This document shows positions 40,416 through 46,373 of a stretch of DNA of 64,000 nucleotides, in pieces; within the stretch, counting starts at the first letter, position 1; the number at the start of each line of letters is the position of its first letter. Made by a program: the position numbers and the translations under genes. The stretch spans positions 64,001 to 128,000 of the forward strand of contig JAXSPP010000001.1 of assembly GCA_037927135.1 (NCBI GenBank), given 5' to 3'. The notes under the pieces are model-generated. The model had not been told where the DNA came from and ran no database searches. It worked only from the letters and a program-made list of their open reading frames with translations. This stretch comes from Candidatus Pampinifervens sinense (GTDB lineage: Bacteria > Aquificota > Aquificia > Aquificales > Aquificaceae).

Positions 40416-41606
40416 ATGAGGGACTTTTTACTTTTTTTAGAAAAGAAGGATAAGTTTGCGGTGGGGCTCTTCAGGCAGTTCAACATTGAAGAAAGTCCAA
40501 ACAGGGTAGTCATCATCACCCCAACCCTTGAACAAAAAAGGTGGGTTATGGAGTATGTAAAGGCTAGACTTTCAGATTATGGAAAGGAGATCTTTGTTAA
40601 AGCTAGGGAGGAAGAAAGAAAGGAAAGCTTTGATTTTAAAGATGGATTACAGCAAAAGTATAGCTTTGAAAACTTTGTGGTTGGAAGGGCAAACGAATTG
40701 GCCTATAAGGTATGCCTTGAGGTCTCTTCCAATCCCGGTGCTTACAGCCCACTTTTTATCTACGGTGGAGTTGGCCTTGGAAAAACCCACCTTCTTCACG
40801 CCATAGGAAATAGGGCCAAATCCCTTGGCTATAAAGTCGCCTACAGACAGCTGAACGATTTTTCCGATGAGATGATAAAGAGTTTAAAGCAGGGTAAGAT
40901 GGAAGAGTTCAGGAGGCTGTACGCAAGCTTGGATATTTTGCTATTGGATGATGTACAGTTCCTTTCTGGTAAAGAGAGGACGCAGGTGGAGCTTTTTAGA
41001 ATCTTTGAAAGTCTTCAGGCAAGAGAAAAACAGATAGTCTTTGTGAGCGATAGGCATCCGAGGGACATGAAGGATGTTTCCGAAAGGCTTCTCAGCAGGT
41101 TTGCTAGCGGGCTTATACTGGAAATAGGTTTGGATGAGGACACAAAGCTGTCCATAGTTAAAAATAAGCTATTGCTCTTTGGACTTCCTTTGGACCAAAG
41201 GTACATAGATTATGTAATGGAAAACACTGGCTGGAGCGTAAGGGAGATAGAAGGCTTCATAAGGACATTAAAGCTTACGGGAATAAGGGAAGAGATAAAG
41301 GGAGGTGTGAAAAGGGAAGAGGAGCTCTTGGCCCTTATAGCCAAGCATTTTATGCTAAGCGTGGAGGATCTAAAGAAGGAGTCAAAGGAGAGGAAGATAA
41401 TAAGGGCAAGGCAGATAGCCATGTACTTTTGCAAAAAGCTACTTAGGATGAGCTACTCGGAGATAAGCAGGCTTTTTGGCAAATCTGATCATACATCAGC
41501 CCTTTATGCCATAAGGAAGGTGGAAGAAAAGAGGTACACCGACAAAAAGTTTGATTACATGCTTCAGGTTTTGGAAAAGAACCTAAGGAGGGTTATAAAG
41601 GAATAA
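40416..41606 (+). CDS. dnaA: Chromosomal replication initiator DnaA
   Basis: YSFENFVVG, GGVGLGKTH, LLDDVQF, RQIAMY and DHTS. Confidence 0.95.
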   Translation: MRDFLLFLEKKDKFAVGLFRQFNIEESPNRVVIITPTLEQKRWVMEYVKARLSDYGKEIFVKAREEERKESFDFKDGLQQKYSFENFVVGRANELAYKVCLEVSSNPGAYSPLFIYGGVGLGKTHLLHAIGNRAKSLGYKVAYRQLNDFSDEMIKSLKQGKMEEFRRLYASLDILLLDDVQFLSGKERTQVELFRIFESLQAREKQIVFVSDRHPRDMKDVSERLLSRFASGLILEIGLDEDTKLSIVKNKLLLFGLPLDQRYIDYVMENTGWSVREIEGFIRTLKLTGIREEIKGGVKREEELLALIAKHFMLSVEDLKKESKERKIIRARQIAMYFCKKLLRMSYSEISRLFGKSDHTSALYAIRKVEEKRYTDKKFDYMLQVLEKNLRRVIKE

Positions 41607-41617
41607 ATTTTATACAA

Positions 41618-43168
41618 ATGCTGGTAAGGTTAAGCCTTGAAAACTTTTTTCTCATAAAGGGTGAAGAGCTCCACTTTGATAAAGGGCTAAACGTGATAAC
41701 GGGTGAGACGGGAACAGGAAAGTCTCTCACTGTCTCTTCACTTCTATTCTTAATGGGTGAAGAGGGTGAATACCCAGAAGGCACATGCGTAGAGGCAGAG
41801 CTTTTCTCCGAGGGTGAAAGTGTGGTTTTAAGAAGGGAGATAGTAAAAGGAAGGAGCAGGTATTACCTTAATGGAAGGGGTAGCAACAGAAGGGTAGTAG
41901 AAGAAATCCTTTCTTCTCAGGTGCTTCTCCAGGGTCAGAACGATAGGACAAAGATAACACGCCTGGACTTTCAGAGGGATGTTTATGATAGGTTTGTGAA
42001 GGCACTTGAGGCAAGGAGCAGGGTGGAGAAGGTTTATGAGGAGGTTTTGGACCTAAGGGAAAGGCTAAGGAATATAAGAGAAAGGAGGATTGAAAGGGAG
42101 ATAAGGAGAAGACTCCTTGAGGAGGAGGTAAAAGAAATAGAAGGCATAGGCCTCTCTCCAGAGTCTTATGAGCAAGTCAAGAAAAGGCTTGAAGAGATAA
42201 ACTTGGCCGAAAGGATAAACAACCTTGTGCTTTCGGCCCTTTCTGGCCTTGAGGCAGGCGCAGAAGGTCTAAAGGTGGCAAGCAAGGCCCTAAGGGAACT
42301 TTCAAGCTTTAAAGATGTAAAGGAACAACTGGAAGGTCTTGAGCCAATAAGGGATGTGCTGTTTGAGATAGAGAGGTCTCTGAAGGCTATGCTTGTCTCC
42401 TACAGCCAAGAGGAGCTTGACAGCCTGAACGAGAAGGTCTTTAAGGTTCAAAGGCTTGAAAGAAGGTATGGCATGAGCTATAGAGAGCTTTGGGACCACA
42501 TGCAAAGGCTAAAGGAGGAGCTAAGGAAACTTGAGGAGGAAGAAAGCCCAGAGAAGCTGGAAGAAGAACTAAAAAGGAAGGAGGAGGAGCTTGAAAGGTT
42601 ATACGATGAGCTAAGCCAGATAAGGCAGAGGGGGAAGGAGGAGTTTGAAAGGAGGGTTTTGGAGTATTTAAAGGATATGGGGCTTGAGAGGGCAAGCTTT
42701 AGGGTGCATTTTGAAGAGAAGGCGGGAAGGTATGGTAAAGAGCAGGTAAAGTTTCTCTTCTCTTCCTATGGGAGGGATGAAAAAGAGATCTCCGATGTGG
42801 CTTCTGGTGGTGAGATATCAAGGCTTTCTCTTGCCCTCTTTATGCTTTCGCCACCTGCCCAGACCTACGTTTTGGATGAGGTGGATGCTGGCATAAGCGG
42901 TATTACTTCCATAAGGCTTGCAAAGCTTTTGAGGGAGCTTTCAAAAAACACCCAGCTTATAGTCATAACTCATCAGCCAGCGGTGGCTTGCGCAGGAGAC
43001 AAGCACTTTACTACAAAAAAAGAATACATGGGGGACATTCCCTTTATCAAAGTGGTTGAACTGCAAGAAGAGGAGCGCCTTGAGGAGATAGCAAGGCTTA
43101 TGGGGAAGGTGAATGAAAACACCCTAAGGGGTGCAAAGGACCTAATAAGGGAGGTTTGCGGTGTTTGA
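41618..43168 (+). CDS. recN: DNA repair protein RecN
   Basis: TGETGTGKS, coiled coil, ASGGEISR, LDEVDAG and ITHQP. Confidence 0.93.
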   Translation: MLVRLSLENFFLIKGEELHFDKGLNVITGETGTGKSLTVSSLLFLMGEEGEYPEGTCVEAELFSEGESVVLRREIVKGRSRYYLNGRGSNRRVVEEILSSQVLLQGQNDRTKITRLDFQRDVYDRFVKALEARSRVEKVYEEVLDLRERLRNIRERRIEREIRRRLLEEEVKEIEGIGLSPESYEQVKKRLEEINLAERINNLVLSALSGLEAGAEGLKVASKALRELSSFKDVKEQLEGLEPIRDVLFEIERSLKAMLVSYSQEELDSLNEKVFKVQRLERRYGMSYRELWDHMQRLKEELRKLEEEESPEKLEEELKRKEEELERLYDELSQIRQRGKEEFERRVLEYLKDMGLERASFRVHFEEKAGRYGKEQVKFLFSSYGRDEKEISDVASGGEISRLSLALFMLSPPAQTYVLDEVDAGISGITSIRLAKLLRELSKNTQLIVITHQPAVACAGDKHFTTKKEYMGDIPFIKVVELQEEERLEEIARLMGKVNENTLRGAKDLIREVCGV

Positions 43169-43835
43169 GGAGATATTAAAGATAAAGGAAAAGGTAAAGC
43201 CCTATGTGGATAGAAGATTATCTGAGTTTAAAGAGCTGGGGAAGAAGGGAAAAACCATCTTTGATTTTAGACCCTTTGCAGACTACGTGTATGAGGCAGA
43301 CCTTTTTTCCGAGCTTTGCTTTTGCATCCTTACCGCCAACTCTTCTGCCCTGATGGGTATAAAACTGCAGAAGACCATAGGCATAGAGGGCTTCAAAAGC
43401 ATGAGCTTGGAGGAGCTTGAAAAGGCCATATCTTCCGCAGGCCACAGGTTTGCCCGCCAAAGGGCAGAGAGGATAGTCAAGGCAAGGGAGAATTTTCATA
43501 AAGTGATGGAGCTTTTAAAGAACTCAAAGAATGCCAAAGAGATAAGGGAGCTTTTGAGCGATAGCTGTTCCAAGTATAAGGTGGAAGGTTTTGGCCTAAA
43601 GGAGGCCTCTCATTTTCTCAGAAACATAGGCTATGAAAACCTTGCCATAGTGGACAGGCATGTGTTCCGATACCTCAAAGAAAAGGGCCTTTTGCCAGAC
43701 TATAAGACCATCACAAGGAAGATATACCTTGAGGCGGAAAAAAGGCTTGAAGAGGTATGTGAAAGGCTTGGCATGACACAAGCAGAGCTTGACCTTTACG
43801 TTTTTTACTACAAGACGGGGAAGGTGTTGAAGTAG
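43161..43835 (+). CDS. ogg: 8-oxoguanine DNA glycosylase/AP lyase (OGG2 type)
   Basis: LCFCILTANSSA, GHRF, G.KEASHFLRN.G, DRH and TGKVLK. Confidence 0.92.
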   Translation: MFEEILKIKEKVKPYVDRRLSEFKELGKKGKTIFDFRPFADYVYEADLFSELCFCILTANSSALMGIKLQKTIGIEGFKSMSLEELEKAISSAGHRFARQRAERIVKARENFHKVMELLKNSKNAKEIRELLSDSCSKYKVEGFGLKEASHFLRNIGYENLAIVDRHVFRYLKEKGLLPDYKTITRKIYLEAEKRLEEVCERLGMTQAELDLYVFYYKTGKVLK

Positions 43836-43879
43836 CTTTATCCCTGCAACACCCCTTTTCTAATCCAAGTCTTTCAAGC

Positions 43880-44063
43880 TTTCCGCGAAGGGGTCAATGG
43901 GCCTATGCTTGTCTGAATTAGATGTATCAAGGCTCAGAAGCATTTTGACATTTTATCTCAATTCCCAACTGGAGGTTCGCGGAAAAACAACCCCACTTGA
44001 AGCACTTGACAAAATTCTAAAGTTGGTGTATTATCTGTATTAGCTTTAGGTGGTAGGTGGTGG
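43880..44063 (+). promoter_or_regulatory. CRISPR-type leader with inverted motif and promoter
   Basis: TTTCCGCGAA (43880-43889) and TTCGCGGAAA (43976-43985) form a perfect IR; TTGACA-17 nt-TATTAT at 44006-44034 points into the repeat. Confidence 0.6.
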
Positions 44064-44092
44064 GTTTTATCTGAACTGTGTGGGATGTAAAG
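44064..44092 (+). CRISPR. Solitary CRISPR repeat (no array)
   Basis: GTTTTATCTGAACTGTGTGGGATGTAAAG (29 nt) resembles thermophile type I-B/III repeats (GTTT...AAAG/C ends); only one copy seen. Confidence 0.65.
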
Positions 44093-44244
44093 CACTTTTT
44101 AGCATGAGTTTTTCAAAATCTTAAGAGGAGTGGAAGAGTAAGCAAAGGAAAATAAAGCATAAAAGCATAAATAGAGGTATTCCCTTTTTCGCTTTTCCAC
44201 AAGGCCTTTTACAAAAACAGCGCCATTAGCCTATATTTATTCCT

Positions 44245-44754
44245 ATGAGAACTATAAGCAAAGAACAGTTAAAGGAACTTTACGATAAGGACTTTCCACT
44301 GTGGGTAGAGATTAACTTAGAGCTTCTCAAGGAAAAAGCCTATGATTTGGTGGACTGGGAAAATCTCCTTGAGGAGATAGAGGATATGGCAAGGTCAGAT
44401 TTAAAAGCTTGTATTAGCTATTTAGCGGTTATTTTGGAACATCTTTATAAGTGGGATCACTTTAGAGAACTCACGAAGGCTGGGAAGGAAAGGGGAGGAC
44501 TAAGCTGGATAAGAAGTGTAGAGAATGCAAGGGATGAAATAGACGTGCTATTCTATAGATACCCAAGCCTAAGGCAAAAGCTACCAAAGGAGCTTCAGTC
44601 TGCTTGGGTTGAAGCCAGAAAGAACTTAAGAAGATGGTTAAGGGAATTGGGAGAGGATACGGACAAGTATTTTATTCCAGAAGATTGTCCATACACCTAC
44701 GAAGAGGCAATGACAAGAGATTTAAGGAAGGAGATGAAAAGGCTTAAAGAATAG
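44245..44754 (+). CDS. DUF29-family protein
   Basis: LYDKDF.LW, VDWENL.EEIE.M, HLYKW, W..S...AR, PSL and P..CPYT. Confidence 0.9.
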   Translation: MRTISKEQLKELYDKDFPLWVEINLELLKEKAYDLVDWENLLEEIEDMARSDLKACISYLAVILEHLYKWDHFRELTKAGKERGGLSWIRSVENARDEIDVLFYRYPSLRQKLPKELQSAWVEARKNLRRWLRELGEDTDKYFIPEDCPYTYEEAMTRDLRKEMKRLKE

Positions 44755-44765
44755 AATTATATCTC

Positions 44766-46373
44766 ATGAAGCTCTTTATAGTGGAGAGTCCTACTAAAGC
44801 TAAGACTATTGCCAAATATCTTGGGAAGGATTGGACAGTAAAAGCTACCTTAGGGCATATTAAGGATCTTCCTGAGGACCATCTTGGTATTGATGAGGAG
44901 ACCCTAAGGCCCACCTTTGTATGGATTAGAGGCAAAAAGGCCCTTATGGAGCAGATAAAAAGGATAGCTCAAAAGGCGCAGGCTATATATATAGGCACAG
45001 ACCCAGACCGAGAGGGAGAGGCTATTGCTTACTTTGTTTATAAAGAGCTGGAAAAGCTAAAGAAGCCCATAAGTAGAGTGGTCTTTTATGAGATAACAGA
45101 GCGCGCTATAAGGGAGTCTTTGCAGAATCCAAGGGATGTAGATATGAACCTTGTTAAGGCACAGTTTGCCAGAAGAATACTTGACAGGCTTATAGGTTAT
45201 AAGCTTTCACCCTACCTTTGGAAGGCCTTTAACAAGAATACCCTATCCATAGGCAGGGTTCAATCGCCAGCCTTAAGGCTTATTGTGGAAAGAGAAAAAG
45301 AGATACTAAGCTTTAGGAAAAAGGAGTATTACTACATAAAGGTCATCTTTGAAAAGGATGGGATAGAGTTTTCAGCCCTTTGGGACTATAGGTTTGAAAG
45401 GCCAGAAAATGCTAAGCCTTACCTTGAGAAGATAAAAGACGCTCTCTTTGAGGTGGTAGAGTATAAGGAGGAGAGAGAAAGAAAGCAACCGCCAGCACCT
45501 TTTATAACCTCAAGCTTGCAGGCTACAGCCAACAGTCTATTGGGGATGAGCGTGGAGGAGGTGCAAAGGATCGCCCAAAGGCTATACGAGGAAGGCTATA
45601 TAACCTATCCAAGAACAGACAGCCATAGGATGAATCCTCAGAAGGCAGAGGAGTTTATGAAATACATTGAAAGGGTTTATGGAAAGGGTTATGTGGGAAG
45701 GCTGAGAACCTTTAGGGATAGATCGGTGGCGCAGGGTGCTCATGAGTGTATAAGGCCTACTTCTATAGACTATCCACCTTTGCAAGGCAAAGAAAGAGAG
45801 TTGTATGAGCTTATACTGAGGAGAACTCTGGCCAGTCTTATGGCACCAGCCCTTCTTTTAAAGAAGAAGGCTGTTCTTGCACCGCTTTATGAGAGGAAAA
45901 AGGGAGAGAATATGATGTTTGTGGCTAAGGGTAGTGAGCTTGTCTTTGAAGGCTACCTTAAAGCCTACCCAGAAGGTTTGGAGCTTGTCAAACTTCCAAA
46001 CCTCAAAAGGGGTGAGATCCTAAAGCCCAAAAAGATAACCCTTGAAAAGAGGCAAACACAGCCTCCACCAAGGTATACGGAGGGTAGCTTGGTTAAAAAG
46101 CTTGAGGAGCTGGGCATAGGCAGGCCGTCCACTTATGCGGTAATAGTCAAAACGCTAAAAGAAAGGGGTTATATTGTGGAAGAAAAGGGTTATCTTAAGC
46201 CTACGGAGTTGGCCTTTAAGGTAATGGAATTCATACAGGAAAAGTTTCCAAAGGTTGTTGATTACAAGTTTACAGCGAAGATGGAGGAGGGCCTAGATAA
46301 AGTAGAGGAGGGGAAGGAGGATTGGAGGGCCTTGGTAAGGAGCTTCTTCTCTTCCATAGGGGAAGGTCTATAA
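44766..46373 (+). CDS. topA: DNA topoisomerase I (no C-terminal Zn ribbons)
   Basis: VESPTKA, DPDREGE, GRVQS, ITYPRTDS, AHECIRPT and GIGRPSTY. Confidence 0.95.
   Translation: MKLFIVESPTKAKTIAKYLGKDWTVKATLGHIKDLPEDHLGIDEETLRPTFVWIRGKKALMEQIKRIAQKAQAIYIGTDPDREGEAIAYFVYKELEKLKKPISRVVFYEITERAIRESLQNPRDVDMNLVKAQFARRILDRLIGYKLSPYLWKAFNKNTLSIGRVQSPALRLIVEREKEILSFRKKEYYYIKVIFEKDGIEFSALWDYRFERPENAKPYLEKIKDALFEVVEYKEERERKQPPAPFITSSLQATANSLLGMSVEEVQRIAQRLYEEGYITYPRTDSHRMNPQKAEEFMKYIERVYGKGYVGRLRTFRDRSVAQGAHECIRPTSIDYPPLQGKERELYELILRRTLASLMAPALLLKKKAVLAPLYERKKGENMMFVAKGSELVFEGYLKAYPEGLELVKLPNLKRGEILKPKKITLEKRQTQPPPRYTEGSLVKKLEELGIGRPSTYAVIVKTLKERGYIVEEKGYLKPTELAFKVMEFIQEKFPKVVDYKFTAKMEEGLDKVEEGKEDWRALVRSFFSSIGEGL

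Follow-up and report, generated by a model that had tools for sequence, protein, structure and literature searches.

A solitary CRISPR leader and repeat beside an ogg gene as the probable relic of a type I-B-family locus

A CRISPR leader, its promoter and one repeat stand intact in the intergenic stretch 43836–44244, between an 8-oxoguanine DNA glycosylase gene (ogg) and a DUF29 gene, in the window analysed here (64,000 nucleotides of the draft genome of the hot-spring bacterium Candidatus Pampinifervens sinense; Table 1). This locus is very probably a relic without CRISPR function. Most likely it is a vestigial type I-B-family locus, keeping its leader, promoter and one repeat in a lineage that has lost both cas operons of a congener. 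A sequence-only reading had taken the same letters for a regulatory crRNA-like RNA or else for an array, naive or collapsed, that could still take up new spacers. The second of these descriptions fits insofar as both leader and repeat share homology with their counterparts in real arrays, and fails in its final part, because spacer acquisition is impossible in a genome from which Cas1 and Cas2 are absent.

Table 1. Features of the solitary leader–repeat locus and its flanking genes, in window coordinates
Feature	Position	Strand	Evidence
8-oxoguanine DNA glycosylase gene (Ogg), upstream flank	43161..43835	+	Pfam PF22175 Ogg-HhH, 197 bits
CRISPR leader, 208 nt, 'A-type' distal part	43856..44063	+	184/208 identical to the cas2-adjacent leader of congener G029
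Leader inverted repeat, distal arm TTTCCGCGAA	43880..43889	.	Inverted-repeat search
Leader inverted repeat, proximal arm TTCGCGGAAA	43976..43985	.	Within most conserved leader block
Leader promoter TTGACA-17-TATTAT	44006..44034	+	11/12 consensus positions
Solitary type I-B-family CRISPR repeat GTTTTATCTGAACTGTGTGGGATGTAAAG, 29 nt	44064..44092	+	Rfam RF01352
Unique intergenic DNA, with 37-nt segment (44093–44129) and weak hairpin (44130–44200)	44093..44224	+	
Second promoter-like site TTTACA-18-TATATT, directly 5' of the DUF29 start codon	44208..44237	+	10/12 positions
DUF29 gene, downstream flank, co-directional with the leader promoter	44245..44754	+	PF01724, 116 bits
Type IA topoisomerase gene, 535 aa, after DUF29	44766..46373		PF01131, 423 bits, plus Toprim

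The 29-nt repeat is a genuine CRISPR repeat, since its score against the Rfam family CRISPR-DR43 (RF01352; 37.8 bits) lies above the gathering score of 35. The orientation of repeat families in Rfam is arbitrary; the match was reported on the minus strand, and the position of the leader argues for the plus strand as the sense in which the repeat should be read. GTTTTATCTGAACTGTGTGGGATGTAAAG is the sole copy in the window at up to 3 mismatches, none of 100 shuffles matched, and it differs by one base from the repeat of arrays A, B and C of the congener G029. The repeat proposed from the letters alone is thus borne out by its Rfam match, its single occurrence and the shuffles.

Judged by homology with the leaders of real arrays, the 208 nt ahead of the repeat are likewise a genuine CRISPR leader. 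The closest relative is leader A of G029, to which 212 of 237 positions are identical when the repeat is included, and comparison with the arrays of that genome shows both elements to be homologous to the leaders and first repeats of true arrays. Eleven leader copies could be aligned, the window's and ten others, drawn from four genomes (the present one, here G000, and G029, G075 and G051). Both promoter hexamers (–35 and –10) and both arms of the leader's inverted repeat fall within conserved blocks of this alignment. Among the 136 columns that are invariant in leaders A–D of G029, nine differ in the window's leader, none of them in the hexamers. A promoter scan taken by itself is at chance level (4 sites against 2.4 ± 1.5 in shuffles); the promoter that the sequence-only reading had named nevertheless stands, matching 11 of 12 consensus positions and lying in conserved leader blocks.

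The inverted repeat had also been described correctly: its arms are perfect, 10 nt long and 86 nt apart. At the distal arm a motif CCG(C/T)(G/A)AA occurs in 10 of the 11 aligned leaders, without compensatory changes. Base-paired RNA was considered for the arms and rejected; because their variation is uncompensated and the region precedes the promoter, they are better read as two putative DNA motifs outside the crRNA precursor. The leader as a whole shows no visible decay, which could reflect either recent loss of the system or continuing selection.

The remainder of the genome holds little else of this kind. In G000 (1,546,113 bases, 12 contigs, a draft that is 99.96 per cent complete) the repeat occurs only four times at up to 7 mismatches, once here, twice on contig C2 and once on C6, and a k-mer scan found no further array. 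The C2 locus consists of a homologous leader, two repeats and one 38-nt spacer; that spacer matched phages at an E value of 0.5 and found no significant counterpart in the G029 cas regions compared with it, namely the I-B operon, the type III region and a portion of the second I-B operon. The C6 repeat (G000:C6:38130–38158) is bare, carries 2 mismatches and corresponds to the terminal repeat of G029 array C, with the same trailer. At that C6 site the leader and the other seven repeats of array C are replaced by about 700 bp of unrelated sequence.

Family searches of G000 found no Cas1 (PF01867), Cas2 (PF09827), Cas6 (PF01881, TIGR01877), RAMP (PF03787) or Cas7 (TIGR02585) protein; those models that were also run on G029 all found matches there, PF01881 having been run on G000 only. 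A tblastn search of G000 with nine I-B proteins of G029 gave one weak match, of Cas3 to a helicase (E 7.5e-5), and of the 20 open frames taken from the type III and second I-B regions of G029 (each 90 aa or longer) only one found a counterpart, a 113-aa frame on the strand opposite cas. The earlier remark that the window contains no cas genes can accordingly be extended to the whole genome for all cas families tested. These absences are real, because the sites of both G029 cas operons are contiguous cas-free DNA in G000. The 9.5-kb I-B operon is missing, with both of its flanks mapping to C2 around the remnant of a leader and two repeats, and C5:82335 is the one position at which the type III operon with array B is absent. 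That this organism carries cas genes on a plasmid or an unassembled piece is formally possible. Comparison of G029:C1:433557–443834 with G000:C5:82335 shows that the type III operon, its leader and the 16-repeat array form a 10.3-kb block that is gained or lacking as a whole; its junction on the right lies exactly past the last repeat.

Searches with 43836–44244 across 61 genomes of the family, and with the leader alone across 25 genomes of the genus, recovered the leader from three of the 25 (G000, G029 and G075) and from one genome of another genus (G051). G029, a complete 1.72-Mb genome of the same genus, has six copies: leaders A–D head arrays of 11, 16, 8 and 10 repeats, E heads a single repeat, and F heads two copies of a different repeat. 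Leader A directly follows a complete type I-B operon (cas6, a gene in the cas8b position, a 178-aa gene, cas7, cas5, cas3, cas4, cas1 and cas2), whose genes were named by NCBIfam models; the gene in the cas8b position encodes 485 aa, and its identity as cas8b is queried. Array B adjoins type III RAMP genes, and array F a second I-B-like operon. G075, also of the genus, is fragmented (130 contigs, 96 per cent complete); it yielded no match to Cas1, Cas2, Cas6 or Cas7, and it carries twice a leader with two repeats and one spacer, plus one truncated leader. The leader-bearing congeners therefore comprise one cas-bearing genome with long arrays and two without cas that have 0–2 repeats per leader, three related genomes that do not amount to a statistical sample. 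Locus F of G029 (C1:1225380–1225720) belongs to the same leader family with a decayed promoter, and its different 29-nt repeat also ends in ...ATATAAAG; because that leader heads a different repeat, one leader family serves two repeat types.

The pattern across G029, G000 and G075 fits a long-standing prediction, namely that an array no longer acquiring spacers is reduced to a single repeat by recombination between its repeats. After the loss of Cas1–Cas2 no spacers would be added, and recombination or replication slippage between identical repeats would remove spacer–repeat units until one repeat was left, which repeat–repeat recombination could not itself remove. Yosef et al. (2012; PMC3384332) state that recombination of repeats could leave a single one. 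Transcription from the leader promoter may persist; without Cas6 and an effector, the RNA would be unprocessed read-through towards DUF29, given that no terminator-like site was found in 43700–44900. No RNA run was among those listed as containing the stretch, and the one metatranscriptome compared with it (X9) contributed no reads, which has no bearing on whether the promoter fires. It is equally possible that the unit is a leader–repeat seed that never expanded, contraction being a reconstruction and no earlier spacer being documented at the locus. As a relic, the locus offers a natural example of how CRISPR loci die. It also carries a caution for annotators, who would do well to check the whole genome for cas genes before calling a solitary repeat with a promoter a regulatory RNA.

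A seed that never expanded might also have a more general origin, which we regard as rather unlikely and put forward tentatively: units of a leader and one repeat may be discrete modules that are copied to new chromosomal sites and there seed arrays, 43856–44092 being such a seed still unexpanded. Two observations together suggest spread of this kind, a common start base of the A-type leaders and a site that is filled in one genome and empty in others. The A-type leader has one common starting base (T(T/C)C(T/C)AATCC...) in four contexts that are unrelated to one another: it follows ogg in G000 and cas2 in G029, and G075 has it at two further sites. At locus E of G029 (C1:865907–866129) about 220 bp of leader and a single repeat are inserted in an intergenic site that is empty in G000 (C1:232916–232920) and in three outgroup congeners (G012, G036 and G054), and the right-hand junction falls within TAAA(G/C), the 3' end of the repeat. 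To judge by this comparison, locus E looks like a newly seeded single-repeat array. We know of no mechanism for the spread of leader–repeat modules, for which Cas1–Cas2 and illegitimate recombination are candidates. Such spread, if true, would bear on how genomes gain many dispersed arrays with the same leader.

Among explanations that assign the locus a present role, the one that survives best, unlikely as it is, holds that the leader promoter has been kept to drive or boost the co-directional DUF29 and topoisomerase genes. The hexamers are indeed intact at 11 of 12 positions, the DUF29 gene starts 152 nt past the repeat on the same strand with no terminator-like site between them, and the leader is slightly better conserved than the four-fold sites of its neighbours. 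The gap in conservation is small, however (0.885 identity to G029 leader A; 0.83 for the four-fold sites in its recN-like and ogg neighbours), and the leader loci so compared are non-orthologous. The DUF29 gene, moreover, has a promoter-like site of its own before its ATG, in a stretch common to its paralogues: the last ~13–16 nt 5' of the start codon recur before three of them and overlap the site, which is probably the promoter of DUF29 itself.

It might also be supposed that the leader and repeat persist as a standby naive array, a landing site for a type I-B adaptation module that arrives by horizontal transfer or resides on another element in the cell, and this we consider very unlikely. 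In the E. coli I-E system a leader and one repeat suffice for acquisition when Cas1 and Cas2 are provided (PMC3384332); here the leader, the leader–repeat junction and the repeat are all intact, and the cas-bearing G029 also keeps a leader with one repeat at locus E. Yet G000 has neither Cas1 nor Cas2, selection is unable to maintain a site for a future event, and the leader is present in only three of the 25 genus genomes, two of which lack the cas genes tested. The single-repeat array of Yosef et al. (2012; PMC3384332) resembles this locus in having a leader and one repeat; theirs was engineered in E. coli I-E with Cas1–Cas2 supplied, whereas the present one is natural, of the I-B family and without Cas1–Cas2.

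That a multi-spacer array was collapsed to one repeat during assembly is highly improbable, even though arrays can be collapsed or broken by short-read assemblers, the genome is a draft of 12 contigs and public contigs break at the repeat. Four metagenome runs contain 96 per cent of the sampled words of 43700–44500, and three of them (X1, X2 and X4) were examined; X2 and X4 are nearly identical, with slight differences in four depth bins, and are probably one data set, and one run may be the source of the assembly, so that the support is not fully independent. Summed contig depth in X1 is 65 over the repeat against about 12 in each flank; the corresponding X2 figures are 138 for the repeat, 24 for the downstream flank and 52 for the upstream one. 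A repeat depth only about 3–6 times that of the flanks (X1; X2/X4) is of the order expected for four genomic copies, allowing for a second strain in X2, though several strains may contribute to either flank. The one repeat–spacer–repeat form reported in public contigs is that of the C2 spacer. The break arises because the preceding base and the whole repeat (a 30-mer) also occur at the C2 locus, so that the contigs cannot bridge the leader to the downstream flank; within that limit, a check for array collapse, advised with the original reading, saw no multi-spacer array in the contigs. The ends of the G000 contigs, too, are IS-like repeats and not CRISPR repeats. Most of these ends belong to two repeat families, presumably IS elements, one common to C1, C2, C4, C5, C6 and C9 and the other to C2–C5, C7, C8, C10 and C11, which fragment the assembly.

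Beyond the repeat, nothing resembles an array. An array is defined by at least two repeats with spacers; here there is one repeat, and no repeat-like 29-mer stands above background in the 150 nt downstream. At the expected start of a second repeat the identity is 12/29, a score that about 5 per cent of all genome positions reach or exceed, and a degenerate second repeat 3' of the 37-mer was rejected, the best candidate in 150 nt being 14/29, at background level. The intervening 37 nt are spacer-like in position alone. Exact matches to the 37-mer numbered zero in metagenome contigs and zero in viral contigs, searches from which own-genome records may be excluded and in which mismatched protospacers are missed. 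Against phages and plasmids blastn returned chance matches only (E of at least 0.4), and in the organism's own genome and the cas regions of G029 the best matches were of 13–22 nt (E of at least 0.13), with no self- or anti-cas target. For the interval 44093–44230 a search of 24 congeners yielded no homologue but only short matches (E of at least 1.8e-4), and the two best ones inspected resemble coding sequence from unrelated genes that have no DUF29 in their vicinity; nor does the stretch have a homologue beyond chance in G000. A real spacer was accordingly rejected for want of any match beyond chance in phage, plasmid, viral and metagenome collections. The spacer-like segment of the original proposal is thus spacer-like by position but has neither a second repeat nor matches to bear it out, and the search for its targets that had been recommended turned up nothing beyond chance in the genome itself, in the G029 cas regions or in phages.

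The hairpin that follows is present as described, but its 'long' stem does not exceed chance. It is imperfect; its minimum free energy of –19.8 kcal/mol compares with –14.8 ± 3.1 for shuffled sequence (z –1.65), a stability that 11 of 200 shuffles equal or surpass, and an inverted-repeat search at seed 7 did not report it. Both a structured RNA and a terminator were rejected on z values of –1.65 and –1.12 for the two strands and the lack of a T-run, and beyond the repeat Rfam gave sub-threshold chance matches only (rox2, 21 bits against a gathering score of 55). The 37 nt and the hairpin are very probably ordinary intergenic DNA.

There remains the Cas-guided regulatory crRNA-like RNA (CreA/CreR-like, or crlRNA) or RNA anti-CRISPR (Racr-like), the least probable reading of all: solitary repeat units with such roles do exist (PMC10651486; bioRxiv 10.1101/2024.12.27.630466) and a promoter precedes this repeat, but the mechanisms all need Cas proteins in the cell and none were found, the 37-mer has no match beyond chance in its own genome or the G029 cas regions, 37-mer and hairpin are conserved nowhere searched, and the locus is chromosomal, adjoining neither a cas nor a toxin gene and not lying on a phage. 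The regulatory role first envisaged for the locus is thus unsupported, because Cas6 and an effector would be needed in the same cell and neither was found in G000. The neighbouring genes are recN-like, ogg, DUF29, topoisomerase IA and a MoCF gene.

Several described systems share features with the locus. Closest among known cases are orphan arrays that outlast their cas genes, such as 'CRISPR4' of E. coli type I-F (Almendros et al. 2016, summarized in a review, PMC8616872), which are alike in that cas genes were lost while related strains keep them, and in combining a tiny array with a leader; by contrast, this locus has one repeat and no spacer, and neither its 37-mer nor the C2 spacer matches the cas regions of G029. 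Spacers of anti-cas orphan arrays match the cas genes of relatives, and no such match was found in the I-B operon, the type III region or part of the second I-B operon of G029. The Racrs and solitary repeat units of phages and plasmids (PMC10651486; PMC8616872) similarly place a stand-alone repeat after a promoter, but they sit on mobile elements and act on host Cas proteins, whereas this unit is chromosomal, has a full array-type leader and is accompanied by no Cas proteins that could be found. RNA anti-CRISPRs belong to mobile elements; the block upstream of this repeat is syntenic in five congeners and the host has no cas genes. CreTA and crlRNA, as two preprints present them (bioRxiv 10.1101/2024.01.05.574328; 10.1101/2024.12.27.630466), share a repeat and a spacer-length segment without a normal array; here, unlike there, no effector, partial target or adjoining cas or toxin gene is present, and the segment is unconserved. 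A literature search made without the organism's name returned no paper on the arrays of this organism. Shmakov et al. reportedly dealt with standalone repeats in 2023.

The surroundings of the locus also bear signs of turnover. Synteny with all five of the congeners compared stops just past the ogg stop codon, the matches ending at window 43834–43842. In G029 array D lies 20 nt past the ogg stop and points towards the gene, and here the A-type leader points away from it. In run X2 a second strain at a depth of about 25, which differs at 11 of 201 nt of ogg, has the end of ogg joined to an inverted leader fragment (43834/44036), a third configuration at this site. Because G029 and the X2 strain are configured differently and synteny ends after ogg, the site 3' of ogg is a rearrangement hotspot. 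As an origin for the present arrangement, a simple inversion involving arrays A and D of G029 was considered and rejected, as it fails to reproduce the leader orientation at ogg.

The DUF29 genes call for separate mention. Two of the seven DUF29 paralogues of G000 abut CRISPR remnants, the one in the window and another at G000:C2:112444–112950, an adjacency that by rough estimate is very unlikely to arise by chance. The C2 copy lies 25 nt past the second C2 repeat, in convergent orientation, and about 800 bp that include it are missing from G029 at that site; among the DUF29 copies listed for G029, none is near an array.

Two further observations concern the flanking genes. The topoisomerase (Toprim and Topoisom_bac) is short and may be an extra paralogue, since its nearest match in G029 is only 78 per cent identical and is located elsewhere, at 1091543–1093117. 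Further upstream, the 396-aa gene at window 40416–41606 has a four-fold-site identity to G029 of only 0.48 (51/107), and the next two genes reach 0.83; the sharp divergence boundary after it possibly marks a recombination tract.
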